A stretch of DNA of 64,000 nt. Source: Syntrophaceae bacterium UBA2188. Lineage in GTDB: Bacteria > Desulfobacterota > BSN033 > UBA1163. Location of the stretch: the NCBI GenBank assembly GCA_002327985.1, contig DCVM01000012.1:29-64028 (forward strand), in the 5' to 3' direction. Below the pieces are notes generated by a model that ran no database searches, had not been told where the DNA came from, and saw nothing but the letters and a program-made list of their open reading frames with translations. Positions 14,638-64,000 of the stretch are shown one piece after another; position 1 is the stretch's first letter; every line of letters starts with the position of its first letter. Made by a program: the position numbers and the translations under genes.

Positions 14638-14734
14638 AAACTCCCCTCAACCCTTTCATATTTTTTTAAAATCAATAAATTTCTTTACTTTTTTCCCATT
14701 TTTACCGATCTCTTCCCCTTTCTCTAAATCATTT

Positions 14735-16103: not shown

Positions 16104-16135
16104 AGATGGACGATTACTCCGTTGTCCCCTCTTCT

Positions 16136-17515: not shown

Positions 17516-17548
17516 TTCCCTTCCATTTTCTTCTGATTCCTATTTATG

Positions 17549-18862: not shown

Positions 18863-18914
18863 ACTTACACAAAAAATGGCTCGCTATGCTTGCGAGGCAC
18901 AATAGGGTGGATCA

Positions 18915-19979: not shown

Positions 19980-19999
19980 TTTTTCAATCTTCCTTTCTA

Positions 20000-20983: not shown

Positions 20984-21152
20984 AGCCCCTCCTTTTATGC
21001 GTTTTTTGTCCCTAATCATTTTAAATAAACTTTTGTACGAAATATCTTAATCCACACCTTGAATATCAAGGAACTTTGTTCACCTTTTCCGCAATGTCCT
21101 TGTAGTCATGGATGCGGAGGATGATATCTCCCATCCGCTTTATCTCCGTACT

Positions 21153-22217: not shown

Positions 22218-22236
22218 TTTGGCTCCCCCTTTCTTT

Positions 22237-23211: not shown

Positions 23212-23260
23212 ATATCTACCTCCTAACCACATTTCTCTAAAAATTAGTTTCGATTTATAA

Positions 23261-27356: not shown

Positions 27357-27413
27357 CTTTATCTCCTTTCTTTCAGCTTGGATTCATCTATGGTTAAACC
27401 TGTGATGGAGCCT

Positions 27414-28937: not shown

Positions 28938-29107
28938 AACCCCTCCCTCCTTCTTTTTTCTCTCCATGGTTTGATAAAAAAACAATAATCTCTTCCTCTT
29001 CCCTATCCCAATTCGACCCTCAATAATTCCACTTCACCCCCTTTCCTAAAATAAACTTGCCCGTGTAGCGTGCCCGTAAATCCTCTATAGCCTCAATCTC
29101 TTTCTTT

Positions 29108-29195
29108 CACCCCACCCTCATCCTCACTCCATCAAGGGGGAGAGGGATCTTTGGCCTCTCCCCCCTCTGGAGTGGGTTAGGGGTGAGGAAATGAG
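29108..29195. repeat. long imperfect inverted repeat / GC-rich stem-loop in the RND-DUF1302 intergenic spacer
   Basis: Core 10-bp perfect stem GGGGGAGAGG (29136-29145) / CCTCTCCCCC (29155-29164) around a 9-nt loop, flanked by further imperfect complementarity (cactcca / tggagtg; cctcatcctcac / gtgaggaaatgagg). Confidence 0.5.
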
Positions 29196-29211
29196 GAAAG
29201 AGACGAAATGT

Positions 29212-31629: not shown

Positions 31630-31646
31630 CGACATCTCCCTTACGC

Positions 31647-32669
31647 TTAATACTTAATCCGCTCCCAGGTCGTTGAAGAATTAAGGTAGATAGCCCCTCT
31701 CCACCCCACTGCTACAAATCCAGAATTACCCCGCGGAGCAAGTCCATAAATCCAACCATACTTAATAGATGGCCTAAATTCTGGAGTCTGCCAGGTCTTC
31801 CCACTATCCTCAGAAGATAAAAACGTCCCACTCCCCCCAACGAAAATTTTATCTTTCTTGTCAGAAGTGATACTAAAAAGCTGGGTCCTCCGTGCCCCTG
31901 TCACCACAGGCTCCCACGTCTTCCCCCCATCCAACGTCTTGGTCACATACCCATCTATCCCCACCGCCCACGCCGTCTTCGGATCCAAAACCACAACGTC
32001 AAAAAGATAGGTTCCCCCTATAATCTCCCCCGTCTCCCTCGATATCCTAAACTCCCCCGCCTGCTTCTCCCATGTCACCCCTCCATTACTGGTATGGTAA
32101 ATATACCCATACTCCCCAACCGCCCATCCATGAAGGGCATCACAGAATGAAATAGCCTTAAGGATATAGTCCTCACCACTGAATTGTTTGCTCCAGCTCT
32201 TACCCCCATCATTCGTAAATAAAATCGTGGTCCGCTCAGTAACAATCCATCCTTTTAAGACATCTACAAAAAATACATCCATCAGAAAGTCGGATATGGG
32301 AGATTTCTGCTTCTCCCATGTTCTACCCCCATCTACCGTACGTATGATCGTCCCCTGATCCCCCACAGCCCAACCCTGTTTTGAATCCACAAAATGAATT
32401 GAGCTCAACGCAAAACGCGTGCCGCTGCTCTGACGTTCCCAAGTCTTCCCCCCATCCCTGCTATAAAGAATAGTCCCCCAACGCCCGCAAACCCACCCCT
32501 CTCTCTCATCTGGGAAACTCACCGAAAAAAGATCATCATATAATTTGTTGGGCTGCCCTCTAAGGTTTCCAAATAATAGAAAACAAAATATAAAATTCAT
32601 TCCCAGAAATACATGGAATACATATATAAAGCGTTTAAAAAAAACCCTATAATAAATTGTCCTTTTCAT
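31647..32669 (-). CDS. BNR/Ycf48-like beta-propeller repeat protein, N-terminal TM/signal
   Basis: Repeated S/TxDGGKTW motifs (RDGGKTWERQ, VDGGRTWEKQ, NDGGKSWSKQ, SNGGVTWEKQ, LDGGKTWEP, EDSGKTWQT). Confidence 0.75.
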   Translation of the reverse strand: MKRTIYYRVFFKRFIYVFHVFLGMNFIFCFLLFGNLRGQPNKLYDDLFSVSFPDEREGWVCGRWGTILYSRDGGKTWERQSSGTRFALSSIHFVDSKQGWAVGDQGTIIRTVDGGRTWEKQKSPISDFLMDVFFVDVLKGWIVTERTTILFTNDGGKSWSKQFSGEDYILKAISFCDALHGWAVGEYGYIYHTSNGGVTWEKQAGEFRISRETGEIIGGTYLFDVVVLDPKTAWAVGIDGYVTKTLDGGKTWEPVVTGARRTQLFSITSDKKDKIFVGGSGTFLSSEDSGKTWQTPEFRPSIKYGWIYGLAPRGNSGFVAVGWRGAIYLNSSTTWERIKY

Positions 32670-33062: not shown

Positions 33063-36000
33063 CTATTTAAAAGGCTGAGAAGACCTTTTTGTCGAGCTAT
33101 TTTCTTTCTTCAACAGACCTTTCATTTTTTCCTGAAGATCATCGAGCAGCGTGTAGGCCACTGGAACGACAAAGAGGGTGAGCAGCGTCGAGGCAAACAT
33201 CCCCCCAAAGGTTGCTCTGCCCATCCCCGCTCTTGCCTCACCCCCTGCACTATAGCCCAAGGCCACCGGAAGAACTCCCAACATGGTCGTCACAGCCGTC
33301 ATTAAAATGGGCCGAAGTCTGACAGGAGAGGCCTGAAGGACAGCCTGATCCCTTTCTGTTCCACGTTCTCTTAACGTATTGGTATAATCAACCAACAAGA
33401 TGGAATTCTTCACCACCAGGGCGGTCAGAGTGATCATACCGATCATACTCATTATGGAAATGGTATCGCCCGTCAGATAGAGGGCACCGAAAGCCCCTGC
33501 CGTACTTAAGGGCAACGCCAACATCACTGACAGGGGATGAAGGAAGCTGTTGAACTGCATGGCCAGGACCATGTAGATGATCACGACAGCCTGGATCAGG
33601 GCAATGATCATATATCGAAAGGATTCTTTGAAAACCTCTGCTTGCCCAGTGAAAGCGTAAGAATACCCTTCTGGAATATATTTCTTAGATAGAGCCTCCA
33701 TCTCCAAAATGGCCTCTCCCAGGGCCTTGCCTCCTGCTGTATCAGCGTAGATCGTTGCACTCCTCTGCCGGTCCTTCCGGTTGACGAGATTGGGACCGAT
33801 CCCTTCTTCGACCTTCACGACCTGGGCAAGTTTAATCAGACCTCCTTTGGGGGTTCTAATAGAGATCTGAGAAATGTCTTGCGGATTCATTCTCTGATCT
33901 CTGATCAGCCGGACTCTTACATCATAGCGTTTCGCCCTTTCCACATCCTTAAACTTTGAGACCTCTTGACCACCTATCAACTGCTGAACGGCGGATGAAA
34001 TCTCACGAATATCCAGTCCCACATCAGCAGCCCTATTCCGGTCGATCAGCACCCTCACCTCGGGCTTTGTAAGTTCAAGATCAGAGCTGATATCGACCAT
34101 GCCCGGACTCCTCATCATTTCTTCCATAATTTGGCCGGAGATCTTCTCAATCGTCTCCATTTCCGCTCCTTTAATATCCAACTGCAAAGGCGCCCCTCTT
34201 TTGCCTCCTGAACCAACGGGCGAAATATCTTCTACGTAGGCTTTGAACCCGGGCATTTCCTGTAACTTCTTTCGCAGATCACCCATAATTTGCTGCTGGG
34301 ACCGTTTCCTTTCTTTTCGGTCTTTCAAACTGACAACGACAATCCCTTTATTGACCTCTTTACGTTCTCCAATTCCAATGGCGGCAAAGACTGCTTCAGC
34401 CTCTGGCAGGGAAAGTGTAAGATCTTCCAGCCTTTGCAGACTTTCATCTGTATCGTACAATGTTGAACCGGTCGGCATCTCAAGACGGATGATAAAACGA
34501 CCTTCATCGGACTTGGGGATGAATTCACTCTTCAAATTTATTAAAAGCGCAATACTTCCTAAGAAGATCCCGGTTGCAATAACGATGACTAACCAGCGGT
34601 GTCTTAGAGAGAAGGCCAACGCCTTTCGGTAGCGATCTTCAAGTCTCCCATAAGATTGATCAAAAAATTGATAAACCCTTCCGTGTTTCGATTCCAGCTT
34701 CAAGAACTTTGAACAGAGCATGGGGATAAGGATGAGGGCAACAACCAGAGAAGCGATTACAGAAGCGGCTACTGTGACGCCAAACTGGTAGAAGAATCTT
34801 CCGATGATTCCTCCCATGAAGGCTACCGGAAGAAACACCGCTGCGATGGAAAAAGTTGCGGCCATGGCCGCAAAGGCAATTTCTGAAGTTCCCTTTTTCG
34901 CCGCCCCGACTGGATCAGCCCCTTCCTCCATATGCCGATAGATATTCTCCAGGACAATAATGGCATCGTCGCAAACCACCCCGACCATCATCGAAAGGGC
35001 AAGCATGGTAAAATAGTTCATGGTAAATCCCATGAAATGCATGATGCCAAAACTGGTGATGAGAGATGTAGGGATGGAGACAGCCGTGATGATAGTGCTC
35101 CGAACGTTCAGTAGGAAGATGAACATAATCACTGCGGCAAGGAGCCCTCCGATGAAAACATCCTCTGTGACCCCCCCGATAGCCTCTTCAATGAATTTGG
35201 AGGAATCAAAGGAGATATGGATATCAACTCCCGGGGGAAGAGTCTTCTTGATTTCAGCAAGCTTTGCCTTAACGGCTCCCGCCACTTCTACGACATTGGC
35301 GCCCGATCTTGGGATCACCCCCATTCCTATCGCCTGAATCCGATCATACCGGGCAATGGTTCTCACGGGCTCGGTTCCATCCTCTGCCCATCCCACATCG
35401 TTTAAACGAATGGGAGCCCCATTCTGATAGGTGATGATCAAGTTATTGAACTCTTCGATATTTCGTAATTCACCCAGATTTCTAACCGTGAACTCACGAC
35501 GAACGCTTTCAATGATTCCGCCCGGTAATTCAATATTTTTTGCAAGGAGCGCTCTCGATATATCGGCCGATGTTAATCGATGGGCCTCCAGTTTCTTTCC
35601 ATCCAGCCATATCCTGATCTCCCTTTTCGCGAAGCCCCCTAACATAATTGATCCAACACCTCTGATGGATTCAATTTGGGGTCTCAACACCTCATCAGCC
35701 AACATGCCCAGTTTTGAAGAAGGTTGATTTCCTGCCACCGAGAGCCAGAGAATGGGTCTTGCATTGATGTCGAGCTTGTCGATAATGGGAGGGTCGATAT
35801 CCATGGGCAATCTTTTCTTCGCCACATCCACTTTCGCTCTGACATCCTGAACAGCGGAATCAATATCGCGGTAAAGTTCAAACTCCACAACAACCTGCGA
35901 AAACCCATAACCGCTCGTGGAGGCAATATGCTTCACCCCTTCGATGGTGTTGACCTGCTCTTCAATCGGGTCTGTGACATCGGTATCCATGACCTCCGGC

Positions 36001-36164
36001 GCTGCGCCGAAAAGGGTCGTGGTGATCGTCACCATAGGAAAATCGACTTGGGGGTAGAGGTCGATCCCAATTCGCTGATATCCGAGGATTCCAAAAAAGA
36101 CGAGGGCCAGGGTGATGATGGTGGCTACGACGGGTCGTTTGACAGCGGTGTCTGAGAGAAACAT
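33063..36164 (-). CDS. AcrB/AcrD/AcrF-family RND multidrug efflux pump, inner-membrane subunit
   Basis: 1033 aa, HAE1 signature N-terminus MFLSDTAVKRPVVATIITLALVFFGILGY; RBS GGGAG 7 nt upstream. Confidence 0.9.
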   Translation of the reverse strand: MFLSDTAVKRPVVATIITLALVFFGILGYQRIGIDLYPQVDFPMVTITTTLFGAAPEVMDTDVTDPIEEQVNTIEGVKHIASTSGYGFSQVVVEFELYRDIDSAVQDVRAKVDVAKKRLPMDIDPPIIDKLDINARPILWLSVAGNQPSSKLGMLADEVLRPQIESIRGVGSIMLGGFAKREIRIWLDGKKLEAHRLTSADISRALLAKNIELPGGIIESVRREFTVRNLGELRNIEEFNNLIITYQNGAPIRLNDVGWAEDGTEPVRTIARYDRIQAIGMGVIPRSGANVVEVAGAVKAKLAEIKKTLPPGVDIHISFDSSKFIEEAIGGVTEDVFIGGLLAAVIMFIFLLNVRSTIITAVSIPTSLITSFGIMHFMGFTMNYFTMLALSMMVGVVCDDAIIVLENIYRHMEEGADPVGAAKKGTSEIAFAAMAATFSIAAVFLPVAFMGGIIGRFFYQFGVTVAASVIASLVVALILIPMLCSKFLKLESKHGRVYQFFDQSYGRLEDRYRKALAFSLRHRWLVIVIATGIFLGSIALLINLKSEFIPKSDEGRFIIRLEMPTGSTLYDTDESLQRLEDLTLSLPEAEAVFAAIGIGERKEVNKGIVVVSLKDRKERKRSQQQIMGDLRKKLQEMPGFKAYVEDISPVGSGGKRGAPLQLDIKGAEMETIEKISGQIMEEMMRSPGMVDISSDLELTKPEVRVLIDRNRAADVGLDIREISSAVQQLIGGQEVSKFKDVERAKRYDVRVRLIRDQRMNPQDISQISIRTPKGGLIKLAQVVKVEEGIGPNLVNRKDRQRSATIYADTAGGKALGEAILEMEALSKKYIPEGYSYAFTGQAEVFKESFRYMIIALIQAVVIIYMVLAMQFNSFLHPLSVMLALPLSTAGAFGALYLTGDTISIMSMIGMITLTALVVKNSILLVDYTNTLRERGTERDQAVLQASPVRLRPILMTAVTTMLGVLPVALGYSAGGEARAGMGRATFGGMFASTLLTLFVVPVAYTLLDDLQEKMKGLLKKENSSTKRSSQPFK

Positions 36165-36173
36165 AAAAAACTC

Positions 36174-36267
36174 CCAAAAAACTAAGTCGAATAGTCACTT
36201 AGCCTTTTAGTCATATAGTCCCTTATCTCGTCGTCTTTTCACAGACCATACGACTATCTGACTATGC
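36174..36267. repeat. cluster of short GACTA/TAGTC direct and inverted repeats in the adaptor-pump intergenic spacer
   Basis: CTAAGTcgaatagtcACTTAG inverted repeat, then tagtcatatagtc and gactatctgactatgcgacta; at least 6 copies of the pentamer in about 95 bp. Confidence 0.4.
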
Positions 36268-36306
36268 GACTAAGGAACTTTCAATCCATGAACTCTATCT
36301 CTTATA

Positions 36307-37416
36307 TTATTTTTTGACGATCTTAACTGTTATGCCATCGCTTAACTGTTCATGTCCGGCTGTGACCACTTGCTGTCCTTTTTGAATGCCCTGAACGAGT
36401 TCAACACGGCCTTCCATTCTCACGCCCGTTTCGACCTCCCGACGACGAGCAACCCCGTCCTGGATCACAAAGACAAAAAACTTCCCCTTCTCGCTGAGAA
36501 GGGCCGCCTCTGGGATAAGGAGCGCATTGGGGTTGGTTCCTGTTGGGATAGAGACCTCCGTGAAAAAGCCAGGTTTGAGTCGATGGTGAGGATTCCGAAC
36601 CAGTGCCTTCATCCTCACATTCCGGGTGGAAGGATCAGCTGTCGGGCTGATGAATTGGAGGGTGGCTGAAAACCTTTCTCCAGAGAAAGCCTTTACCGTA
36701 AACCCAAGCCTACTTCCCAATCGGACCATGGTCGCCCAATTCTCCGGGAGATAGAATTCGAGCTCGAGAGGATCCATTTGAACAATCTTTAAAATCTCAT
36801 CTTTGGGAGCCACATTCACATGCTCTCCCAAGGCAGCGATCTTCAGATTGACAACGCCATGGATGGGAGAGACGATTTGATGGTCCAGAAGGTTCTGCCT
36901 GGCCAGACTTAATTCTGCTTTAGCCAAAGTCAACCTTGCCTCGTCCAGCTTTAATTTAAGGGCGAGATCGTCATACGTCTGTTGAGGAATCACTTTTGAT
37001 TCGAGAAGCCTCTGATATCTAACAAGGGTCACCCGGCTCGTCTCTAAGGAGGCTTCTGCCTGTTGGACATTCGCTTCTGCCCTCTCCACCTGGAGCCTGG
37101 CATCCACATCATCCAGTTGAACCACCGTTTGCCCCTTTATCACCCGATCGCCCTCTTTGACATGGATCTGTTTGATGATCCCCGCTCTCTTTGGACTGAT
37201 CGTCACATCTTCAAGGGCTTTGAGACTCCCTATTGCTGAAAGGGTATAGGAAATGAATCTTGGAATCACCTCTATCACTTCCACTTTCTTTTCTTCAGCG
37301 ATGAGAACAGATGGATTGGAGCCCGTTTTGGGTGGATGAGACTCCTTCGAACCACATCCCCCAAGAAAAAGGAGCACTACACATAGACCATATAAAATAA
37401 ATTGCCGCATATTCAT
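36307..37416 (-). CDS. RND efflux periplasmic adaptor (membrane fusion protein, AcrA/HlyD-like), lipoprotein
   Basis: Lipobox LFLGGCGS, biotinyl/lipoyl-like and coiled-coil hairpin (LETSRVTLVRYQRLLES...). Confidence 0.85.
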   Translation of the reverse strand: MNMRQFILYGLCVVLLFLGGCGSKESHPPKTGSNPSVLIAEEKKVEVIEVIPRFISYTLSAIGSLKALEDVTISPKRAGIIKQIHVKEGDRVIKGQTVVQLDDVDARLQVERAEANVQQAEASLETSRVTLVRYQRLLESKVIPQQTYDDLALKLKLDEARLTLAKAELSLARQNLLDHQIVSPIHGVVNLKIAALGEHVNVAPKDEILKIVQMDPLELEFYLPENWATMVRLGSRLGFTVKAFSGERFSATLQFISPTADPSTRNVRMKALVRNPHHRLKPGFFTEVSIPTGTNPNALLIPEAALLSEKGKFFVFVIQDGVARRREVETGVRMEGRVELVQGIQKGQQVVTAGHEQLSDGITVKIVKK

Positions 37417-37487
37417 TCTCTCTCTTCTAAAAAGCTTGTCTGTTTAAGGTTCATTGTTGATCGTTCATTGTTCATCGTTCACCGTCT

Positions 37488-38807
37488 TTACGGATACATC
37501 CTCCCCATGGCTCGTTCCAATTGGGCCTTGGCAATATTGAAGTCGCTTAAGGCACCATAATAGTTGACCCTCGCCTGAGATAATAATACGACCGCATCGA
37601 GGACATCTGTTTGTGTGGCCACCTGATACTTGTATCGTTCTTCATTCATCCTTAAATTTTCTTCTGCCTGTTCAATCGATTTTTCTGCAACGCTGAGATT
37701 CTTCTCAGCCAGCGCCATATTGAGGTAGTCATTCTTGACTTCGAGGGTAATGGAGTCAATGAGTTGCGTCTTCAAGTCTTCTGCCTGAGTGACCTTCACC
37801 TTGTTCTCCCCCACTTTGAGGGCGGTATTGCCCCAATTCCAGAGAGTAAGGGTGGCTAACGCCTGAACCGTCCATCTCTCGTTTTTATAATCCCCGTTTA
37901 GCCCCAATTCTTCAGAGAAACGACCATAGTTCCCTAAGAGACTGATCGTCGGGAAAAACCCACTTCTGGCTGCCTTGACCCCCTCCTTGGCCTGGTCGAT
38001 ATTCAATTGGGCGGCCTTCACCTCCGGCCTCAGGCGGAGGCTCTCCTCAAGAGAGGCTTCAAAACTCATTGGAAAGCGTTTGTACTCAAGAATGTCAACG
38101 ACCTCAAAAGGTGTGTCGATCTCCCTCCTGAGCAATGTATTGAATGAGGCCTTGGCTGTTGCCAGATCATTCTCCACCTTTTTCGCAGCTTGTTTGGTAT
38201 TGGCCAGCCTCACTTCGGCCTGAAGAACATCATTCTTGGGAACAATGCCAACATCAAAAAAGGCTTTGGTCACTTCAAGTTGAGCTTCGAATTGCTTGAC
38301 GGCTTGTTTTGCCACATCCCAAAACTTTTCAGCCCTCAAGATATTGAAGTAGCCCACTCTCACCTGGAGAACCAAGTCCCGTTTCACAGTCTCTACATTT
38401 TCCTTGGAAAGATCAACCCCTAATTTGGCTGCTCGGTAATTCGCTAAATTAAACCCCCCTGTAAAAAGCGGCTGACTCACAGTGGTACTAAAATTATAAA
38501 CGTCCCTGCTCGTACCAATGACTACACCAGAAGCAGAGACCTGATAAGACCCTACGGTGACAGGTGAATCATACCGAGTATAGCCATATTGCCCTGTCCA
38601 CCACGGGAGAAAATTCGTGACGGCTTCCTTCCTTCGGAACTCAGAACCTAAAACCCCTATGGTAGCAGAATGAAGGGTCAGGCTCCGTTCCATTGCAATC
38701 TTTATGCTTTCTTCCAGTGTGAGAGGTTTCTGAGGTTCTTGACCCAAGACAACACCTGTAAAAACCATTGTCCCTAACATGAATCCGACGAACCATTTGA
38801 GTCTCAT
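37488..38807 (-). CDS. TolC-family outer membrane efflux protein
   Basis: Signal peptide MRLKWFVGFMLGTMVFTGVVLG, two repeated halves with long coiled-coil segments; start taken at MRLKW rather than track start 38843. Confidence 0.8.
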   Translation of the reverse strand: MRLKWFVGFMLGTMVFTGVVLGQEPQKPLTLEESIKIAMERSLTLHSATIGVLGSEFRRKEAVTNFLPWWTGQYGYTRYDSPVTVGSYQVSASGVVIGTSRDVYNFSTTVSQPLFTGGFNLANYRAAKLGVDLSKENVETVKRDLVLQVRVGYFNILRAEKFWDVAKQAVKQFEAQLEVTKAFFDVGIVPKNDVLQAEVRLANTKQAAKKVENDLATAKASFNTLLRREIDTPFEVVDILEYKRFPMSFEASLEESLRLRPEVKAAQLNIDQAKEGVKAARSGFFPTISLLGNYGRFSEELGLNGDYKNERWTVQALATLTLWNWGNTALKVGENKVKVTQAEDLKTQLIDSITLEVKNDYLNMALAEKNLSVAEKSIEQAEENLRMNEERYKYQVATQTDVLDAVVLLSQARVNYYGALSDFNIAKAQLERAMGRMYP

Positions 38808-38811
38808 TAAT

Positions 38812-39444
38812 CTATCTCCTCCTTTCCATTTGCTGTACCCCACCTAAAAAGATTTCTAAAACCGTATCCAACTTTGAAATGAGTGGATAGTATTCTGGAC
38901 TGATCAGCCATTCAAAGACAAAGGAATTGACCACTCCCACCAGGGCATGAGCTAAATCCAGAGGATTCATGGATTTGAATTCCCCTTCCTTGACCCCATG
39001 TTTCATCACCTCGGCGAGAAGGTGGATATAAATAATCATCTTGTTATGGATTCCTTTTCCTAAATCCTCTTTGACCGTCCACTCAAACCGATTTCGTTCT
39101 GAGATGTAGATCCTTAAGAAATCGCGATTCTTTTCGAAGAATTCGAACTGAAGGGCCAGCACCTTCTTGATTCGGTCTACGGCCGAGGTCTTCTGAGAGA
39201 GTTCGGTTTTAACCAGCCGATTGATCTCTTGGACCTTATCATCAATGAGGGTAAAATAAAGTTCCTCTTTCGATTTGAAATACTTATAGAGGGTCCCCGT
39301 TCCAAATTCTGCTTCCCGCGCAATATCACTCATGGTGGTGGGGAAGAATCCTTTGGCGGCAAACACCTTTTCTGCTGCCGAAAGGATTTCTCCACGATGG
39401 GCTAAATATTCCCTTTCCTTCCGGCTTATTTTCTCTCTCTCCAT
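38812..39444 (-). CDS. TetR/AcrR family transcriptional regulator (efflux operon repressor)
   Basis: HTH FFPTTMSDIAREAEFGTGTLYKYFKSKEELY; first gene of the efflux operon. Confidence 0.85.
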   Translation of the reverse strand: MEREKISRKEREYLAHRGEILSAAEKVFAAKGFFPTTMSDIAREAEFGTGTLYKYFKSKEELYFTLIDDKVQEINRLVKTELSQKTSAVDRIKKVLALQFEFFEKNRDFLRIYISERNRFEWTVKEDLGKGIHNKMIIYIHLLAEVMKHGVKEGEFKSMNPLDLAHALVGVVNSFVFEWLISPEYYPLISKLDTVLEIFLGGVQQMERRR

Positions 39445-39583: not shown

Positions 39584-40198
39584 TTAGGCTTTGGGTGGTA
39601 GGGAAACAAGCTTCCCGCTCACCTCCAGAATATGGACCATCACCCCCTTTAAGGCTTCGAGGATACCTAAATAAATGGGTGAGGATTTGGGCACGCAGAT
39701 TCCTTGAATCAACCTCTCCTCATGTTCTTCGGAGTAGCCATTCGCAATTTTAAATATGGACCTCACCTCCTCTCCAATTCGCTGAGCCAGAAGCTTGTTC
39801 TGGGTAGTGATGAGATCCGGAAGGTTTTCCAAAAGTCTCATGGCTTCTTGAAATACATCATTCACTTCTTTGACTGCCCGATCACTAAAAAGGTTATGAT
39901 GTTGAGACTTGGCTTTGAGTCGATCAAAAATCCCCTCAATATTGTAAGTCATACGGTCCAAACTGGAGGCGATCGAGAGATAAGGCTTTGCCCACTCCCT
40001 CCCTTTTTCGCTCGACGGACTCTTTGAAATAATGAAACTGGTCAACTCTGAGGAATATTGATGAATCTTATCTTTCACTATCTCTGCCTCTGTAAAGGGT
40101 TTCTCCGAAGGTCCTCGAAATCCCTCGAAAGCCAATTCCAACATCTTCATCAGACCCTGACAAACCAGAACCATCTTCTCCATGATCTCTTTGTCCAT
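39584..40198 (-). CDS. hypothetical all-helical protein, possibly PhoU/DUF47-like
   Basis: 204 aa, predicted helical, weak PhoU-like patterning; no phosphate transporter nearby; assignment tentative. Confidence 0.3.
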   Translation of the reverse strand: MDKEIMEKMVLVCQGLMKMLELAFEGFRGPSEKPFTEAEIVKDKIHQYSSELTSFIISKSPSSEKGREWAKPYLSIASSLDRMTYNIEGIFDRLKAKSQHHNLFSDRAVKEVNDVFQEAMRLLENLPDLITTQNKLLAQRIGEEVRSIFKIANGYSEEHEERLIQGICVPKSSPIYLGILEALKGVMVHILEVSGKLVSLPPKA

Positions 40199-40262: not shown

Positions 40263-41513
40263 CTAAAACAGGTTCAATTGATCCTTCGATGCGTCCCCTC
40301 TTTTTTTCTCAGGGAAAAGATTGATTTTCCCATAAGCCCCGTCATGGCCTGGAACAATCGAAACTTTTTCCTGCCTCATTCGGATAATTCCCTCTAAGAT
40401 AGCGGGGGAAACAAATGAAGCCAATTCGTCAGGCGTGGCATCGAGGAGGATCCTAAATTCCGGACCTCCTCGATCAATCAATCTTTCATATTCAGACTCC
40501 ACTGCCTTGGTCCCCACTCCAACATCCAATGCCTCCGCGACGATCTCCTCCAATGGAATAAGGTGAATGGAGGGGATGGCATGCTTCGGAATAAAGCTTT
40601 CTGGACGATCAGCCAATTCCTCCACCCGATGCATCACCCCAACGGTCAACTTCTTATGACAGTTCGGGCAGAGATACTGATTTGCCTTGGTTTGAGAAGG
40701 AGAAAAGATCACACCACATTGACGATGACCATCATAATGATATTTCCCCTCCTCTGGAAAGAATTCGATGGTGAAGAGTAGTTTCCTTGGGTCTTTCTTT
40801 CGAATGGCCTCCGCGATCTCTCGATAATCCAATGCACAATCGAAGGCATTGGCTTCCCTTCCCAACCGGTTTGGGGAGTGGGCATCGGAATTGGAGAGGA
40901 GGGTAATGGAATCAAGGGCTGACCATCTCCAGTTCATCTCCGGATCTGAAGAGAGGCCTGTCTCGATGGCATGGATATGAGGAGATATCTCTCCATAACA
41001 TTCTTGAATGGAATCGAATCCTGAATTGGCTCCAAAGATTGAAAACCAGGGGGTCCAGGCATGGGCAGGAATGATCAGGCAATCCGCCGAAATATCTAAA
41101 ATCATCTTTGCCAATTCTTTTGCTGAAAAACTAAAAATGGGTCTCCCATCTGACGAGAGTTTCCCAAGGTTTCCCAATTTAGAACGAATCGTCTCAACCA
41201 CTTCGAAGCTGGGGGCAAAAATGAGGGTGTGGATCCGCCTACCCTTGCCCTCCTGAGAGTAAATGTTGCTCACTTCAGCCGTCAAAATATACTGGACGCG
41301 CTCATCTCCCTTGATCAGTTTAAGAAGACCATTCCCCAAAGGTTCCAATTTTGACCGCAACTCGGCGAAATAGGTCGGATGGGTAAAGTCTCCTGTGCCG
41401 AGAAGAGCGATTCCCTTTTTCTTTGCCCATCGAGCAAGGTTCTCCACCTCCATCTCCTTGCTTGTGGCCCGACTGAACTTAGAATGAAGATGAAAATCAG
41501 CAATAAACCGCAT
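40263..41513 (-). CDS. PHP-domain protein, endonuclease Q (EndoQ/TIGR00375)-like
   Basis: N-terminal PHP metal site ADFHLHSKFSRATS, further His/Asp ligands (PAHAWTPWFS, NSDAHS), internal zinc finger CPNCHKK...HRVEE; 416 aa. Confidence 0.55.
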   Translation of the reverse strand: MRFIADFHLHSKFSRATSKEMEVENLARWAKKKGIALLGTGDFTHPTYFAELRSKLEPLGNGLLKLIKGDERVQYILTAEVSNIYSQEGKGRRIHTLIFAPSFEVVETIRSKLGNLGKLSSDGRPIFSFSAKELAKMILDISADCLIIPAHAWTPWFSIFGANSGFDSIQECYGEISPHIHAIETGLSSDPEMNWRWSALDSITLLSNSDAHSPNRLGREANAFDCALDYREIAEAIRKKDPRKLLFTIEFFPEEGKYHYDGHRQCGVIFSPSQTKANQYLCPNCHKKLTVGVMHRVEELADRPESFIPKHAIPSIHLIPLEEIVAEALDVGVGTKAVESEYERLIDRGGPEFRILLDATPDELASFVSPAILEGIIRMRQEKVSIVPGHDGAYGKINLFPEKKRGDASKDQLNLF

Positions 41514-47463: not shown

Positions 47464-48051
47464 TTAAGAAAGAAGGGATTGGTAAATATATTGCCTTCCC
47501 CGATGAGACTCTTCCTTCCCTACCATCGGCCTTTCCATTCGAACGACCAGGCGCTTCTTATAAAGATTGAGAAGCCGGGTGCCTCCTGTGTTCATTTCAA
47601 TTCCCTCTTCCTCGGAAAGTTCCCTCAGCGTCAGCTGCCTTTTCTTCATCACCTGGTTTAAGGTGTGGGACAAATAATTATTCAGAGAACCAATGATTTG
47701 CCATCCATCCGCCCCCGTGGTCAGTACCGCCAATTTTTTTCTTTCCAAGGCAACACTGATGTTTTCCGCTTGGGAGGGGTTAAGGTTTTTCAGGACAAGA
47801 AATTTCTCTCCATATTCACCGCTCCACAACCGGGAAATCATTTTGGCCACGACTTCATCAGCCCAGGAAAAATCGATAGGCCCCATTCCTGAAAAATCAA
47901 GGACGACTCGGAGCACTCCCTTCTCCTCTCCTAAAACCTTTTCAATGGCCTCTCGAATCCGCACGCCCCGGGCCCGGCCTGTCATCTCTCTCGATCCGTT
48001 CTTCAAAAGTGTGTGGGGAAGCTTCCTTAAGGTCAGGGTCCGTTTTTCCAT
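47464..48051 (-). CDS. hypothetical protein with STAS-like (DUF4325-like) N-terminal half
   Basis: VLRVVLDFSGMGPIDFSWADEVV resembles STAS/DUF4325 anti-sigma-antagonist-like fold; assignment tentative. Confidence 0.4.
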   Translation of the reverse strand: MEKRTLTLRKLPHTLLKNGSREMTGRARGVRIREAIEKVLGEEKGVLRVVLDFSGMGPIDFSWADEVVAKMISRLWSGEYGEKFLVLKNLNPSQAENISVALERKKLAVLTTGADGWQIIGSLNNYLSHTLNQVMKKRQLTLRELSEEEGIEMNTGGTRLLNLYKKRLVVRMERPMVGKEESHRGRQYIYQSLLS

Positions 48052-57893: not shown

Positions 57894-57997
57894 GAGGGTT
57901 TGCCCTAACTCCCCGGGGCTTGAGATTTCAATATGGCAACTTGCATGTTCAATCAATTATAATGAAAAAAAACCATTAAACCGATAAGGAGTAGAAA

Positions 57998-58330
57998 ATG
58001 GCCGATGAGTCGAGTTTGCTTCATGTCAATGATAAGAATTTTGCCTCCGAAGTACTCCATTCAGACCTTCCAGTATTGGTCGACTTTTGGGCAACCTGGT
58101 GCGGTCCCTGCCGAAGCATCAGTCCTATTGTTGAGGAGTTGGCAAAGGAGTTTTCAGGGAAGGTGAAGGTGACCAAGCTTAATGTGGATGAGAGCCCTGC
58201 AACCCCCAGTCAGTATGGAGTAAGGGGAATTCCAACCCTGATTCTCTTCAAAGGTGGGAAGGTTCTCGATCAAATTGTCGGTGCGGTGCCAAAAACCCGT
58301 TTAAAAGCCTTGATTGAAAAGGCTCTTTAA
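57998..58330 (+). CDS. trxA: thioredoxin
   Basis: WCGPC active site, 110 aa, RBS AAGGAG. Confidence 0.9.
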   Translation: MADESSLLHVNDKNFASEVLHSDLPVLVDFWATWCGPCRSISPIVEELAKEFSGKVKVTKLNVDESPATPSQYGVRGIPTLILFKGGKVLDQIVGAVPKTRLKALIEKAL

Positions 58331-58517
58331 ACGGACGGTTCCTTTGCCAGCGATTGCCAAATGCTCATTTCTAATAAGAAACGTTTCATATTGAATGACT
58401 CCTTCATTCTCTTTGTGTGTCTGGCATGGGTATTCCTTCTTACTCATTGTGCTAAAGAAAAGAAATCCTCATCAGCTTTGGCGTCGGATTTTACGCTGAA
58501 CGCCATCCCCAGTAGGA

Positions 58518-59132
58518 TTATTTTCTCTTGGCCTCTTCCATGGAGTGGAGGTATTCTTCGATGACCTTCTGGGGGTCTAATCCCAGGGACTGAGCATAAT
58601 TTCTTAAAAACCCCTTGAGATAGACCAAGGCTGGGAGTTTGTCAAAGGCCTCTTCCTCAATCCACTCCAAAACCTTTATACTAATCTTTGTCTCCTTAGA
58701 GATGTTTTGGAGTTCAATCCCCATCCTTTCCCGAACCTGCATTAGGGTCTTTCCGTGATAAACCCCCTCTTCTACATTGAACGAAAGTCCGGTGAAAGAA
58801 AGGGAGGTCTTTTTTCCATGGGGCATCCCATGGGTTTCAGGAGGCTTTTCGGGTGGCGGGTACCCAACCATCTGGAAATGGGACTGGTCGTAACTTTTCC
58901 GTAATGCCTCGTCATTGAGAACCCGAAAAGCCTCTTCAACAGCCTCTTGTATTTCCTTCACCTCCTCATCGGAAAAGAGGGAATAGACAGCCATGGATTC
59001 GCTGTGAAACGTCTCTTTGGCATGTTCATAAGCCCTCTGTATTTCTTTGGCCGTAGCGGTCGGACTGACTTCCAAGATCTCATAATACGTCTGGTCTTTA
59101 ATACTCTTGATGCTCATATCCGGTAAAATCAA
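58518..59132 (-). CDS. RodZ-like HTH (HTH_25/XRE) protein with degenerate J-domain-like N-terminus
   Basis: C-terminal ISKETKISIKVLEWIEEEAFDKLPALVYLKGFLRNYAQSLGLD matches RodZ N-terminal HTH; N-terminal YYEILEVSPTATAKEIQRAYEHAK resembles DnaJ J-domain but lacks HPD; start overlaps (ATGA) the upstream ATPase gene. Confidence 0.5.
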   Translation of the reverse strand: MILPDMSIKSIKDQTYYEILEVSPTATAKEIQRAYEHAKETFHSESMAVYSLFSDEEVKEIQEAVEEAFRVLNDEALRKSYDQSHFQMVGYPPPEKPPETHGMPHGKKTSLSFTGLSFNVEEGVYHGKTLMQVRERMGIELQNISKETKISIKVLEWIEEEAFDKLPALVYLKGFLRNYAQSLGLDPQKVIEEYLHSMEEAKRK

Positions 59133-60091
59133 ACCCCCTTCTCATAGCTATTTGCTAATTTGGAGGCGATCTCCATCACACATTGAGCCGCCCTGGACCT
59201 CGAGTTTTCTAAAACCAGAGGCTTCCTTCGCCGGATGGAATGACTCACATCTTGGTCGTAGACGATATAGCCCAAATAGTGAAGATGAATGCCAAAATAT
59301 TTCAGACAAGCGCTTCGAATCGAAAAACCAATCTCAATATCCTTCTTTGAACGGGCTTGGTTCAGAATGAGATTCGGGTGAAAGGTTTCGGCTTCTTCGA
59401 CGATCCGTTGGGCATCCGCCTCATCGATTCGCTTCACCGCTTTAATGAGTTCATGAGGGTTTTGAATTCCCCTTTCATTCTTACGATCCATCAGACCATC
59501 GATCAGGGTCTTGACCTCTGAGGAGGAAACCGATTGTTTCAGTCTCCGATAGAACGCACTTTTGAGAAACCGATATGTATTTTCGATCGAAGTGGGTTCA
59601 GGGGTAACCACCAGAATCCCTCCATCAGACATCAAGAAGAAATCTAAAACACTCAAAGAGTTGCCCGCTCCTAAATCCACGAGGATCGTATCGCTATCCA
59701 GATTTTGAATGGAGCGAATGAGTTTTCGTTTCTGAACGCTCTTTGCATCTGCGGCATTGAGCAGGTCTTGTGCACCGGTCAGAAGTTGAACGTTGGGAAT
59801 GGGGGTGGGGATAAGAACTTCACGAAGATGGGAAACCCTCTTTTTAATAAAGTCAGAGAGGGTAAAGGCTGGAGGAGAAATACCCAGAAAGGTGTGGAGA
59901 TTGGCTCCACCTAGGTCGGCATCAATGAGAGCAACACGGATTCCAAGCTTCGAAAGACAGATACCCATATTGGCTGTGATGAAACTCTTTCCACTTCCTC
60001 CCTTGCCACCACCGATGGTCCAGATCATCTTCCGGTTGCGAAACTGATTCGACCCCACCCTGAACCCCTTCTTCATCTCCCGCCCCCCCAT
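59129..60091 (-). CDS. MinD/ParA-family P-loop ATPase
   Basis: Deviant Walker A GGGKGGSGKS, IDADLGGANL; translationally coupled on both sides. Confidence 0.8.
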   Translation of the reverse strand: MGGREMKKGFRVGSNQFRNRKMIWTIGGGKGGSGKSFITANMGICLSKLGIRVALIDADLGGANLHTFLGISPPAFTLSDFIKKRVSHLREVLIPTPIPNVQLLTGAQDLLNAADAKSVQKRKLIRSIQNLDSDTILVDLGAGNSLSVLDFFLMSDGGILVVTPEPTSIENTYRFLKSAFYRRLKQSVSSSEVKTLIDGLMDRKNERGIQNPHELIKAVKRIDEADAQRIVEEAETFHPNLILNQARSKKDIEIGFSIRSACLKYFGIHLHYLGYIVYDQDVSHSIRRRKPLVLENSRSRAAQCVMEIASKLANSYEKGV

Positions 60092-60093
60092 GA

Positions 60094-61143
60094 CTAAACG
60101 GGAGGTTGCGGGGATGATCCATTTTCTATTTCATTCCATATGCCGTCAATCTTTCCATGACAATGACGGCATGCCCCATTCACGACATCATTTTTTGTCA
60201 CTCGAAATCCAGTCCGTTCAATCAACCTAAGGCCACAGTGGGGGCAGAAGGTATCTTCACCTTCCTCTCCGGGATTATTTCCACAATAGACATATCGGAG
60301 CCCTGCCTTGATCCCAATCTTCCTGGCTCGTTGCAACGACGAAGCAGGAGTTCTTGGAAGATTCAGCATCTTGTGGGTGGGATAAAAAGCGGAGATATGC
60401 CATGGCACCTCTATCCCCAAGGAGACGATGAATTGAGCTATTTCCTCAAACTCCTGATCTGAGTCGTTGAGGGTAGGAATGACAAGGGTGGTGATCTCCA
60501 CCCAAATCCCCATCTGTTTCATCCGTTTGAGGTTCTCCAGAACTGGATTCAAGGTTGCCCCGCAGATCTCTCTATAAAATTTATCTCTGAAACTTTTTAA
60601 ATCGACATTGGCTGCATCTAAGCAAGGCTGGAGGGTTTGGAGGGCTTCCTCCGTCATATACCCATTAGTAACAAAAATATTTTTAATTTTCTCATGAGCG
60701 GCCAGACGTGCTGTCTCGTAGGCATATTCGAAATAGATGGTCGGCTCTGTATAGGTGTAGGAGATGGATTGGCATCCGTATTGTTTGGTTAAAGAAATAA
60801 TTTTAGGGGGAGAGAGGTCAGATCCCTCAATCTGACCCTCTCGACCTCTCGGCATCTGAGAAATTTCATGATTTTGACACTGGAGGCACCTGAAATTACA
60901 ACCGACAGTGGCTATAGAGAAAGAACTTGATCCTGGAAAAAGATGAAAGAGGGGTTTCTTCTCAATGGGGTCCACATTCAGCGAGATGGCACGGCCATAG
61001 ACGAGTGTATAAAGCTTTCCTTCCCGATTCTCTCGAACGCCACAGAGTCCTCTTTTCGAAAGGGAGATGGTACATCGATGATGGCAGAGTCCACATTGCA
61101 CCTTTCCATCCTTAAGAGGACTGTAAAACATCGCTTCTTTCAT
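60094..61143 (-). CDS. amrS: AmmeMemoRadiSam-system radical SAM enzyme (AmrS-type, PFL-activase-like)
   Basis: N-terminal CGLCHHRC...GLCGVREN, radical SAM GCNFRCLQCQNH, C-terminal CPHCG...CRHCHG zinc ribbon. Confidence 0.7.
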   Translation of the reverse strand: MKEAMFYSPLKDGKVQCGLCHHRCTISLSKRGLCGVRENREGKLYTLVYGRAISLNVDPIEKKPLFHLFPGSSSFSIATVGCNFRCLQCQNHEISQMPRGREGQIEGSDLSPPKIISLTKQYGCQSISYTYTEPTIYFEYAYETARLAAHEKIKNIFVTNGYMTEEALQTLQPCLDAANVDLKSFRDKFYREICGATLNPVLENLKRMKQMGIWVEITTLVIPTLNDSDQEFEEIAQFIVSLGIEVPWHISAFYPTHKMLNLPRTPASSLQRARKIGIKAGLRYVYCGNNPGEEGEDTFCPHCGLRLIERTGFRVTKNDVVNGACRHCHGKIDGIWNEIENGSSPQPPV

Positions 61144-61198
61144 ATCATCTTTCCAATCTCCGGACAGGACATGTCCTGATTAAAAAAAGAGGCGAACA

Positions 61199-62383
61199 CT
61201 AAAGATCGAAATGAGGAAGTTGCTTAAGAACGAATTCTCTGATGACCTGTGGCTTGGGAAAGCCTCCAAGGATCTTGTTGTTCTGGACAAAAGGGACGAG
61301 AAGCTCTTTAAACCGACCGCCACAAGAACATCGGTCTGCATCCGGGGTAGACCGCCTTCGGTTCTTCTTAAAAGGAACTATTTTATCTTGAAAACATTTC
61401 GAGCAACGGAGGACACTTTTTGATCCTGACATCTTCCCCCTCTTTGCCAGAGGTTTTCCATCGATTTCGACGATGTCCATTGCAAAGTCGATCACCCGTG
61501 CATTGGTGATGGATGTCCCCACCCCGTAGGCATCCACCAGAGGATTCAGGGCAAGGATTCGCTTCTCATCTAACCCACCGCTGACATAAATTTGAACATG
61601 ACCGAATCCCCTTAAATTCAGTTCCCAACGAATCTCCTCAATGATCTTCTGAAAATCACCTCGCCTCGAACTGGGGGTATCCAGCCGGATCCCAAAAAGT
61701 TTCTTCCCAAGTGCCTCAGCCACTCGAATGGATTCTATCTTTTCATCATTAAAAGTGTCAACCAGAGAAACCCGTCTCACTTTCGGCTGGATCACTTCAT
61801 CAAAAGCCTTGGTCGCCTCCACGGTATCCCCCATGATCAGGATCAATGCATGGGGCATGGTTCCCGAGGGTTCCTCGCCGATCAACTCGGCGTTCTTTAC
61901 CACCGATATCCCATCACAGCCACCGATGAAAGCATTTCGCTCTACCATGGGCGCCACGACGGGGTGGATTCGCCTCGCACCAAAGCTGATCACTTTTCGT
62001 TCCCCGGCTGCTTTTTTGCAGCGAGCAGCCTTCGTCGCCACGCCTGAGGCCTGACAGAGAAGTCCCAAGAGAGACGTCTCATAGAGGCCAAAATCTGTGT
62101 ACATCCCCTCGATCTCCATCACGGATTCAAAAGCCCGAAAGATCGTCCCCTCTTTCATCGATCGGACACTGATTTTCAAATCTTTCAGAAGATAAGCTGC
62201 TTCCTCGATCCCGGCTAAGACCCCCCATGCGTAATCCTCAGGAAACCGTTTGGCAATGAATTCAGCCTTCACCCATTTATCAATCTTTTTTGCTTTGAGG
62301 ACTTGCATCGTCCTGACAAAATAGATATCGGTCAATCTGCCTTCCTTGATTTCCTTTGGGTCCGCCGTATGGAACATGCGCAT
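61199..62383 (-). CDS. nicotinate phosphoribosyltransferase (archaeal-type) with C-terminal zinc ribbon
   Basis: NAPRTase core (SGGLDEKRI, GVGTSI) and C-terminal CSKC...CSCGG; start uncertain (track start 62434). Confidence 0.75.
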   Translation of the reverse strand: MRMFHTADPKEIKEGRLTDIYFVRTMQVLKAKKIDKWVKAEFIAKRFPEDYAWGVLAGIEEAAYLLKDLKISVRSMKEGTIFRAFESVMEIEGMYTDFGLYETSLLGLLCQASGVATKAARCKKAAGERKVISFGARRIHPVVAPMVERNAFIGGCDGISVVKNAELIGEEPSGTMPHALILIMGDTVEATKAFDEVIQPKVRRVSLVDTFNDEKIESIRVAEALGKKLFGIRLDTPSSRRGDFQKIIEEIRWELNLRGFGHVQIYVSGGLDEKRILALNPLVDAYGVGTSITNARVIDFAMDIVEIDGKPLAKRGKMSGSKSVLRCSKCFQDKIVPFKKNRRRSTPDADRCSCGGRFKELLVPFVQNNKILGGFPKPQVIREFVLKQLPHFDL

Positions 62384-62665
62384 GGCTCCAAAAATAAAAT
62401 TTGGATTTCCTTTTATATAACAGAAATTTATCAACCCTGTCTATAAAAATATTTCACTGACCCCTGTTTGAAAAATAAGAAAGGAGCAAAAAGGGAGGAG
62501 CCATCATCCCCGCGGCTCGCCCCGTTAAAAGGTGGTAAGCAAAAGAACTCCTGGTTCACAATGAAAATTTTATAACGGGATAAGGCTCTTATTCAGAATG
62601 CATTTATCAAAAAAAGCGATGGGGTTGGATGAGCGAAGGGGGCCATGGCGGGTGCTTCCCTTGGA

Positions 62666-63475
62666 TCAGAGAGAATCTGCACCCTGCCCTGCTTTGGCAT
62701 ATCCTTTTTTCTTCTGGTTCGTGTCATAGATGATTCTCAGCCCTTCCAAGGTTAAAAATTCATTGACCTCTTCAATCATTTCAGATTCATCCGCAATGAG
62801 TTTGGCCAGACCTCCTGTGGCAATCACCTTAGGATTCGATCGCACCTCTTTCTTCATTCTTCTGACGATCTCATCGACCAATCCGACATAACCAAAAAAA
62901 ATGCCAGACTGCATACTGTGGACAGTATCCTTTCCGATGACCTGTTTCGGTTTGACAATCTCAACCCGGGGCAACTTTGAAGTTCTCTGGAACAAGGCCT
63001 CTGCCGAAATCCCAATTCCTGGCGCTATGGCACCTCCCATATATTCACCTCGCGCAGTGACGTAGTCGAAGGTTGTGGCAGTTCCGAAATCGACCACGAT
63101 TAAACTCTTTTTGTATCGCTTGTAGGCAGCCACGGCATTGACAATCCGGTCTGCTCCCACCTCCGCAGGATTCTCGTAGGCAATGACTATTCCTGTATCA
63201 ATGTCAGGTCCAACAATAAGGGGTTTGACATGAAAGTATTTTTCTGCCATTCCCTGCAGCATGTCCAACACCGGAGGGACGACCGAAGAGATGATTAACC
63301 CTCGAAAATCTTCCATGTTGAGATGATCAAATAAGAAGAGATCCCGAAACAGAATGCCCCATTCATCGGCCGTCTTTCCCCTTTCTGTTGCAATCCGCCA
63401 ATGATCCACTAATACCTCCCGATCGTACACCCCCAAGACGGTATTCGTATTCCCCACATCAATGACTAGCAGCAT
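62666..63475 (-). CDS. coaX: type III pantothenate kinase
   Basis: [33 protein letters not shown] motifs. Confidence 0.9.
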
Positions 63476-63567
63476 AAAATCCCTCCTACGGATGACGCCA
63501 AATAGTCCCCAGTCTTATAGCCGTGTAGTGAAAAAATATGGAACGGTGAGGCTATTTGACGATGAGA

Positions 63568-64000
63568 CTACAAGACTTCTGTTTTCGTCTTATATTCTAC
63601 ATCTCCTGCAACCACTCTTGTTCGTTTCCCATCTTCCGTTTCCAAAATCAAGGCTCCGTCAGAATCTATTTCCACTGCCGTGCCGGTCAACACTTTCCCA
63701 AAAGAGGTGACCTTGACCTGTCTCCCCTGGATACGAGCCCGATCTCTCCATGCCTTCAGAATAACCTCACTGTCTTCTTTTAAAAATATCGAATACCACT
63801 TTTCCAATTCCAGTAAAAGGGATCGGAGAAACATCTTTCTTGAAATCGGCTGGCCCATCTCAATCTTTAATGAAGTGGAAACAGCCCGAATCTCTTTTGA
63901 AAATATCTGATGGTCCATATTGAGGTTCACACCAATCCCGAGGATGACAAAATGAATTCGGTCCATTTCCGAATGGATCTCGTTGAGGAGCCCTGCTATT
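63568..64000 (-). CDS. birA: biotin--[acetyl-CoA-carboxylase] ligase, C-terminal part (gene continues beyond window end)
   Basis: GIGVNLN catalytic-domain motif plus C-terminal SH3-like domain; birA-coaX adjacency is common; reading frame stays open to position 64000. Confidence 0.7.
   Translation of the reverse strand, partial: IAGLLNEIHSEMDRIHFVILGIGVNLNMDHQIFSKEIRAVSTSLKIEMGQPISRKMFLRSLLLELEKWYSIFLKEDSEVILKAWRDRARIQGRQVKVTSFGKVLTGTAVEIDSDGALILETEDGKRTRVVAGDVEYKTKTEVL

Follow-up and report, generated by a model that had tools for sequence, protein, structure and literature searches.

The AmmeMemoRadiSam system consists of AmrA (AMMECR1), AmrB (Memo) and the radical S-adenosylmethionine (SAM) enzyme AmrS. 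Chromosomes, division sites, flagella, carboxysomes and chemoreceptor arrays are all arranged in the cell by ATPases of the ParA/MinD type, for which every further kind of partner protein has brought to light a new cargo or a new logic; the features common to these A/D ATPases and their downstream partners have been reviewed (PMC11407121). Here we analyse a locus that carries members of both groups, in a 64,000-nt stretch of DNA from Syntrophaceae bacterium UBA2188 (contig DCVM01000012.1, positions 29 to 64,028 of the forward strand; hereafter the window). Three minus-strand open reading frames (ORFs) lie side by side there and, in the ORF listing with translations, stand at exactly the coordinates claimed in a preliminary description. 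They encode AmrS, a MinD/FlhG-like ATPase with a deviant Walker A motif, and a downstream partner protein for which we use the shorthand J-HTH, combining a J-like domain with an HTH_25 (RodZ-type helix-turn-helix) domain. We put the probability at roughly 70% that the locus consists of two independent units packed together in this lineage, amrS and a conserved bicistronic ATPase/J-HTH module, the link between AmrS and the ATPase most likely being lineage-specific synteny.

The ATPase and J-HTH genes form a conserved pair

A scan of 185,579 species genomes anchored on J-HTH gave 61 loci, 59 of them with a full J-HTH match. The ATPase gene lies immediately upstream of J-HTH in 58 of these 59, at J-HTH identities from 28 to 100%, and across relatives the stop and start of the two ORFs often overlap. 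Relatives of the window are labelled Syntrophaceae or Thermodesulfobacteriota, and a J-HTH profile search against 1.84 billion cluster representatives, counted as 50%-identity clusters at E ≤ 1e-30, returned 198 clusters, mostly two-domain proteins of 190–260 aa. The family reaches cultured Myxococcota of the genera Archangium, Cystobacter, Melittangium, Corallococcus, Myxococcus and Stigmatella. Corallococcus coralloides DSM 2259 and Archangium gephyra both have a ParA-like ATPase gene immediately upstream of J-HTH with a 4-nt or 1-nt overlap, in the order SelA, HNH, ATPase, J-HTH, pseudouridine synthase and with no AmrS; the Corallococcus ATPase is 42% identical to that of the window over 278 residues, including the ~40-residue insert of the subfamily. 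In addition, three metagenomic proteins are natural fusions of ATPase, J-like and HTH_25 parts (P0271, 496 aa; P0340, 492 aa; P0310, 428 aa). None of the three contains AmrS. Aligned over 279 residues, the ATPase part of P0271 and the ATPase of the window share 39% identity.

This strict pairing across two phyla, together with the overlapping codons and the fusions, lends good support to one suggestion of the preliminary description, that of a novel MinD-family system with a RodZ-like adaptor, in the form of a conserved two-gene unit. We found no account of the ATPase/J-HTH pair in the searchable literature, including work on J-domains with HTH_25, on ParA/MinD with J-domains and on Myxococcus FlhG, and a recent review of the A/D ATPase family mentions no J-like/HTH_25 partner (PMC11407121). 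The pair therefore appears to be an undescribed ParA/MinD-type system. Many stand-alone J-HTH proteins are labelled ‘FlhG’ by the Joint Genome Institute (JGI), a label that might be annotation transfer from the fusions.

A distant Desulfobacterales-like group places the pair in a context of its own, with the order GroEL, ComF-like phosphoribosyltransferase, ATPase, J-HTH, cytidylyltransferase-like gene and ParA-ParB. The cytidylyltransferase-like gene of this clade encodes 166 aa and overlaps the J-HTH stop by about 20–25 nt (L041:8642-9142, with equivalents in L040–L065), and parA-parB lies 1–2 kb beyond the pair.

AmrS adjacency probably reflects regional synteny

Of the J-HTH-anchored loci, 49 allow the adjacency of AmrS to be judged, and 23 of these have AmrS upstream of the ATPase. 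When the loci are sorted by J-HTH identity, AmrS is adjacent in 21 of 22 at ≥55%, in 2 of 6 at 41–55% and in none of the 21 below 41%. The loci with AmrS adjacent are close relatives plus one small clade, all of which share regional synteny: IspB is retained downstream in every AmrS-bearing clade, and the closer clades also retain a methyltransferase, LysM, DprA and TopA. With IspB held in all AmrS-bearing clades and the further genes in the closer ones, the adjacency of AmrS and the ATPase is conserved no better than the general synteny of the region. AmrS is missing from L029 (56% J-HTH identity) and from the L031–L035/L037 clade, where the regional synteny is retained, and it never stands beside the pair in the distant Desulfobacterales-like group or in the Myxococcota loci examined.

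The preliminary description had suggested that AmrS may be functionally tied to the ATPase and J-HTH, which would make the three genes a three-component system, for example one that positions or delivers a substrate modified by the radical SAM enzyme. The three genes do share a strand and have very short spacers in the window, and the same three genes stand together in 23 genome loci, some of them from a diverged clade in which MazG and RsmI lie upstream (L036, L038), and in 6 metagenome loci. We nevertheless judge such a system very unlikely, as AmrS is absent beside the pair in 26 of the 49 judgeable loci, including all 21 of the most distant, as well as in Myxococcota and in the fusions; it is missing in L029 despite the high J-HTH identity there, and AmrS relatives occur in many unrelated contexts. 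Since all trio-bearing clades also retain IspB downstream, shared ancestry is enough to explain the trio. One locus (L043:6980-8414) has AmrS followed by a truncated J-HTH (the HTH part, residues 62–190) with the ATPase missing, a pattern due to a deletion or else to an error of assembly.

AmrS is encoded apart from AmrA and AmrB

A hidden Markov model (HMM) search confirmed the AmrS identity proposed earlier, with 361.7 bits on TIGR04337 against a cutoff of 220 and a match spanning model positions 3–337 of 349. The closest solved structure by sequence is the pyruvate formate-lyase (PFL) activase 3c8f, at merely 34.6 bits. The possibility raised in the preliminary description that the gene might be an ordinary activase of PFL or of the anaerobic ribonucleotide reductase, with its partner nearby, did not hold: we rejected a glycyl-radical-enzyme activase identity, as the activase models all score far under cutoff and no glycyl-radical-enzyme gene is nearby. 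The MoaA and NrdG models are likewise far under cutoff.

The absence of AmrA and AmrB from the window, also noted earlier, was borne out, with no match to PF01871 or PF01875 among 50 ORFs of at least 150 aa. The LRGCIG (AMMECR1) and PHAGY..G (Memo) motifs are absent from all six frames of the window and were not found in 146 loci scanned, both by motif scans run with no positive control. Contig DHFU01000081.1 of the metagenome-assembled genome GCA_002402385.1, a Syntrophaceae-like member of Thermodesulfobacteriota, matches the window at 100% identity, and the Pfam listing of about 5 kb more of that contig (L001), beyond the window, contains neither amrA nor amrB. AMMECR1 or Memo is adjacent in none of about 100 related AmrS loci examined, and neither is among 20 AmrS neighbour proteins scanned with Pfam. 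Encoding AmrS apart from AmrA/AmrB is the rule for this AmrS clade, and because no examined locus of the clade has AMMECR1 or Memo adjacent, the ‘orphan’ state of AmrS in a 64-kb window carries little information. AmrS beside unrelated genes is normal for the clade and should not be taken as a new radical SAM pathway.

What does neighbour AmrS varies widely. A metagenome scan anchored on AmrS gave at least 595 matches, of which the best 80 (51–87% identity) were analysed; clustering the 229 genes that flank AmrS in these 80 loci yields 167 clusters. In 6 of the 80, AmrS is followed by the ATPase, and each of these 6 belongs to the lineage of the window or to the small L036-like clade. A class I SAM methyltransferase (Methyltransf_11) directly upstream is the most frequent neighbour, in 17 of the 80, often overlapping the AmrS start; MoaA precedes that methyltransferase in 8 of the 17 and in one further locus is itself at position −1 of AmrS. 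This methyltransferase-AmrS association (L092, L103, L114, L117, L124, L128 and others; e.g. L092:4090-7008) is more recurrent than that of the ATPase with AmrS. Other neighbours are GatB, SelA, archease, a TPM phosphatase, a macro domain protein, an HhH-GPD glycosylase, a DtxR/FeoA protein, a ZIP transporter and a GT2 glycosyltransferase. SelA directly follows AmrS in one unrelated metagenome locus (L093:628-3291), and the Myxococcota pair lies just downstream of SelA and HNH (L147:3851-8977, L148:2074-8317); this may be chance or the trace of an older synteny.

The partner protein joins a J-like domain to a RodZ-type HTH

Both halves of J-HTH exceed their Pfam cutoffs (27.8 bits for DnaJ, 24.6 bits for HTH_25; scores in Table 1) and the HPD motif is absent, which upholds the RodZ-type HTH and degenerate J-domain described earlier. 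An AlphaFold2 model built from a shallow alignment had a mean predicted local distance difference test (pLDDT) score of 52 and was discarded; the model from a deeper alignment (pLDDT 74.8) has two folded domains, residues 5–82 and 118–199, with a disordered linker between them. Foldseek matched the first domain to solved J-domains with template-modelling scores (TMt) of 0.76–0.87, the best being 2och (0.87) and 5nro_B (0.84). HPD, a tripeptide that functional J-domains carry between helices II and III, is missing throughout the family, being replaced by FHSES in the window, by FHADS in close homologues and by FSSNS, YSPSS, YSTDS or YQDDS in distant ones, and on account of this loss the domain is unlikely to be a canonical Hsp70 activator. 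The linker varies in length and sequence and runs to hundreds of low-complexity residues in Myxococcota. An LSFTG motif in the linker was rejected as a candidate interaction peptide, as it is conserved among close relatives only.

For the HTH domain, Foldseek returned 3fym (YmfM/RodZ; TMt 0.76, root-mean-square deviation (rmsd) 1.6 Å) and 2wus_R, which is RodZ bound to MreB (TMt 0.80, rmsd 2.0 Å), and a sequence search of the domain agrees, with 3fym, 4gqm and 2wus_R. The most conserved stretch of J-HTH is a near-invariant LPALVYLKGFLxxYA helix, which we take to align with the RodZ helix bearing the MreB-contacting aromatics (F60 and Y64 in E. coli), as a lead only. That helix of RodZ was reportedly seen in contact with MreB by van den Ent et al. 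in 2010.

The HTH_25 domain also belongs to the XRE/Cro-type HTH clan, and J-HTH gives weak co-matches to HTH_19 and HTH_31. One could accordingly picture the pair as a ParABS-like, DNA-centred module, with HTH_25 sitting on a specific site or on the nucleoid in place of MreB and the ATPase acting on the chromosome, in its segregation or organisation or in transcriptional anti-activation. An ATPase with no evident membrane-targeting helix, the proximity of the pair to parA-parB in the Desulfobacterales-like clade, and the ability of FleN-type ATPases to regulate transcription factors (PMC11407121) would all suit such a module. We think it unlikely, given that the best structural and sequence matches of the HTH are RodZ domains, including one crystallised on MreB. 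Moreover, the highly conserved VYLKGFLxxYA segment presumably corresponds to the MreB-contacting helix of RodZ and not to a DNA-recognition helix.

The ATPase belongs to the ParA/MinD superfamily

The ATPase matches ParA, CbiA, AAA_31 and MipZ in Pfam, the first three above cutoff. The earlier MinD/ParA-like assignment thus stands at the level of the superfamily and does not extend to any named family, since no cutoff of a curated MinD, ParA or other named-family model is reached. The curated MinD models score 95.4 against 201.75 (minD_arch, TIGR01969) and 75.8 against 212.9 (minD_bact, TIGR01968), with only residues 23–175 aligning. The alignment keeps GGGKGGxGKS, DADLGxANLHT, DLGxG, PEPTSIENTYRF and LIxNQxR family-wide, and the window ATPase has DADLGGANLHT and DLGAG as its forms of the switch and Walker B motifs. 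As a general feature, ParA/MinD ATPases use these conserved elements for ATP-sandwich dimerisation and hydrolysis (PMC11407121).

By sequence, the closest solved structure is FleN/FlhG (5j1j, 87 bits), followed by MinD, and the match is confined to the first ~155 residues. The switch motifs presumably resemble those of FlhG, and ‘flagellar biosynthesis protein FlhG’ is the JGI annotation of many homologues. One account of these likenesses would make the ATPase an ordinary FlhG/FleN or MinD in its usual flagellar or division role, and J-HTH a chaperone of the DnaJ class or a transcription factor unrelated to it. We regard this as highly improbable: the similarity stays within the N-terminal part, the curated MinD models are far under cutoff, and no minC, minE or flagellar genes are adjacent in any clade examined, the neighbours being housekeeping genes. 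The family also occurs in Myxococcota, which are not known to be flagellated. FlhG/FleN proteins carry an N-terminal FlhF-activating motif, DQAxxLR, and in the alignment this motif is not in the N-terminal extensions of the ATPase, which vary. Strict pairing and fusions speak against an unrelated neighbour, and J-HTH is not a canonical DnaJ because it lacks HPD.

An anti-phage defence role is not supported by the PADLOC result, which gave no match for the ATPase or J-HTH and a weak, generic radical SAM match of AmrS to pVip (25.6 bits).

Gene starts, junctions and neighbouring genes

The features of the locus are collected in Table 1. The preliminary description had claimed translational coupling through ATGA or 2-nt junctions. 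Read from the sequence with the longest ORFs, the junction of AmrS and the ATPase is TAG-TC-ATG, so the 2-nt spacer is there, and that of the ATPase and J-HTH is TTGA, in which the ATPase stop overlaps a TTG start; ATGA occurs at neither. The tight junctions arise because the longest-ORF starts were taken. The N-termini of homologues (MGQTQ.., MGWTQ..) and the NCBI gene call favour a GTG at 60058 for the ATPase, giving 309 aa, and AAGGGG lies 6 nt upstream of it. For J-HTH, homologues (MSIK/MKxIKDQ) and gene callers point to an ATG at 59117, giving 199 aa. These are the probable true starts, as judged from homologues and gene calls, and they leave gaps of 35 nt between AmrS and the ATPase and 11 nt between the ATPase and J-HTH, so that coupling by codon overlap is not supported at this locus.

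Table 1. Coordinates of the features at the AmrS–ATPase–J-HTH locus, as positions in the window
Feature	Position	Strand	Basis
Nicotinate phosphoribosyltransferase (NaPRT), 55 nt upstream of amrS	61199..62434	(-)	NF006415 519 bits
amrS, AmmeMemoRadiSam-type radical SAM enzyme, 349 aa	60094..61143	(-)	TIGR04337 361.7 bits; Radical_SAM PF04055 87 bits
Radical SAM cluster motif C82-x3-C86-x2-C89 (CNFRCLQC) of AmrS	60877..60900	(-)	translation; invariant in AmrS alignment
MinD/FlhG-like deviant-Walker-A ATPase, longest ORF 320 aa	59129..60091	(-)	Pfam ParA/CbiA/AAA_31
Deviant Walker A GGGKGGSGKS, signature Lys30 and Lys35 (320-aa numbering)	59984..60013	(-)	present in all clades of the ATPase alignment
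J-HTH (J-like + HTH_25), longest ORF 204 aa from TTG	58518..59132	(-)	DnaJ 37.2 bits; HTH_25 78.7 bits
J-like domain, residues 5-82 (199-aa numbering), without HPD (FHSES)	58872..59105	(-)	pLDDT ~85-90; Foldseek J-domains
Disordered linker, residues 83-117	58767..58871	(-)	pLDDT <50
RodZ-type HTH_25 domain, residues 118-199	58521..58766	(-)	pLDDT ~90; Foldseek RodZ HTH

The AmrS, ATPase and J-HTH genes are tightly packed and probably co-transcribed, and NaPRT is probably in the same transcription unit as amrS. A promoter and terminator scan of 57900-64000 gave nothing exceeding the expectation from shuffled sequence, placed no terminator between the three genes and found no convincing internal promoter. 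The spacer between NaPRT and amrS contains a perfect 14-bp palindrome, CAGGACATGTCCTG, at 61165-61178, beside a T7 run on the coding strand; the palindrome may serve as an operator or form a small hairpin. NaPRT lies upstream of AmrS in most close relatives. In some it is reduced to fragments, an 88-aa C-terminal piece in L013:5670-5936 and a 162-aa N-terminal piece in L018:5467-5955, which suggests that the NaPRT gene is decaying in these two while amrS, the ATPase and J-HTH remain intact.

Other features of the window

Elsewhere in the window, 10283-23232 holds three E1-alpha/E1-beta gene pairs of 2-oxoacid dehydrogenases, one E2, one E3 and a lipoate-protein ligase. These are flanked (128-25852) by acyl-CoA dehydrogenases, two AMP-ligases, an enoyl-CoA hydratase and several short-chain dehydrogenases/reductases, making up a large acyl/2-oxoacid catabolic cluster. 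A cluster of DUF1329 and DUF1302 proteins with an MMPL/RND-type transporter and a BNR/Ycf48-like protein (25914-32669) is followed by an AcrB/HlyD/OEP efflux system with TetR (33063-39444). Four minus-strand ORFs have no Pfam match at E ≤ 1e-5, at 7619-8371 (250 aa), 39584-40198 (204 aa), 40263-41513 (416 aa) and 47464-48051 (195 aa).

A proposed model and comparison with known systems

With two independent units as the preferred reading, the first, amrS, would be a housekeeping radical SAM gene of the AmmeMemoRadiSam family that occurs in many different operons away from amrA and amrB, and the second would be the MinD/FlhG-like ATPase followed by its cognate partner J-HTH. By analogy with ParA-ParB, MinD-MinE and McdA-McdB, we infer that the ATPase would cycle between a monomer and an ATP-sandwich dimer through its deviant Walker A motif, and that J-HTH would bind the dimer, tune the ATPase cycle and act as an adaptor to a target. 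As the candidate docking partner of the HTH_25 domain we favour MreB or another actin-fold protein, with DNA less likely. The J-like domain may be a protein-interaction module in place of a canonical Hsp70 activator, and the flexible linker would let the two ends of J-HTH act at a distance. Dimerisation, stimulation of the ATPase, the identity of the target as MreB or another protein, and any positioning role are all predicted from these better-known relatives. The strong two-hybrid signal of Bacillus subtilis RodZ with MinD (PMC5778138) offers a modest precedent, again by analogy, for contact between a RodZ-type and a MinD-type protein.

Several observations weigh against this account. The order AmrS-ATPase-J-HTH persists with short spacers in two fairly diverged clades (L036, L038, L039, L100; AmrS at ~60% and ATPase at 42–51% identity), and there is room for co-expression and some functional link to AmrS in the trio-bearing lineages. 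The residue at the second MreB-contacting aromatic position of RodZ varies in Myxococcota members, and the ligand of HTH_25 could be DNA instead of MreB. As judged by inspecting the alignment, the ATPase has no obvious C-terminal amphipathic helix, its termini being variable and its C-termini short and non-conserved.

A more far-reaching proposal, which we hold tentatively and at less than even odds, is that the pair is a new class of ParA/MinD-type spatial regulation, with the HTH tethering it to MreB and the J-like domain perhaps connecting it to DnaK or some other client, that controls cell shape, division-site choice or cytoskeletal placement in Thermodesulfobacteriota and Myxococcota, with AmrS co-expressed in the Syntrophaceae-like lineage. 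Were the HTH to bind MreB, the module would join ATPase gradients to the actin-like cytoskeleton, two major positioning principles of bacteria. The module is widespread, strictly paired and sometimes fused, and its occurrence in genetically tractable Myxococcota makes its function directly testable.

Among described systems, AmmeMemoRadiSam resembles the locus in one component: AmrS here is a full-length TIGR04337 member exceeding the cutoff, whereas genes for AMMECR1 and Memo are absent both from the window and from beside the ~100 related AmrS loci examined. RodZ is matched by the HTH_25 domain of J-HTH in both sequence and fold, including the chain from the RodZ-MreB co-crystal (2wus_R). 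J-HTH nevertheless has neither a transmembrane segment nor DUF4115, ends right after the HTH at residue 199, carries its HTH at the C-terminus where RodZ has it at the N-terminus, and scores far under the curated RodZ models (48.6 against 375 for NF041534; 19.2 against 208 for PRK10856), so that, as judged from these comparisons, it is not RodZ. With J-domain proteins such as DnaJ/CbpA and HPD-less J-like proteins it shares the four-helix J fold, by Pfam and Foldseek, but it lacks the HPD needed for Hsp70 stimulation, as well as the G/F region, zinc finger and client-binding domain. In overall design the pair resembles the ParA/MinD systems (ParA-ParB, MinD-MinE, McdA-McdB, PomZ-PomXY and FlhG-FlhF/FliM), in which an ATPase bearing a deviant Walker A motif and its signature lysine is joined by a cognate partner gene immediately downstream, often with overlapping codons, whose product has a flexible region and an adaptor domain. 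The pair differs from them in a partner architecture unreported for the ParA/MinD family, as no known partner joins a J-like domain to a RodZ-type HTH, in an ATPase that carries a ~40-residue family-specific insert and no recognisable membrane-targeting helix, and in the natural fusions of the ATPase to its partner.

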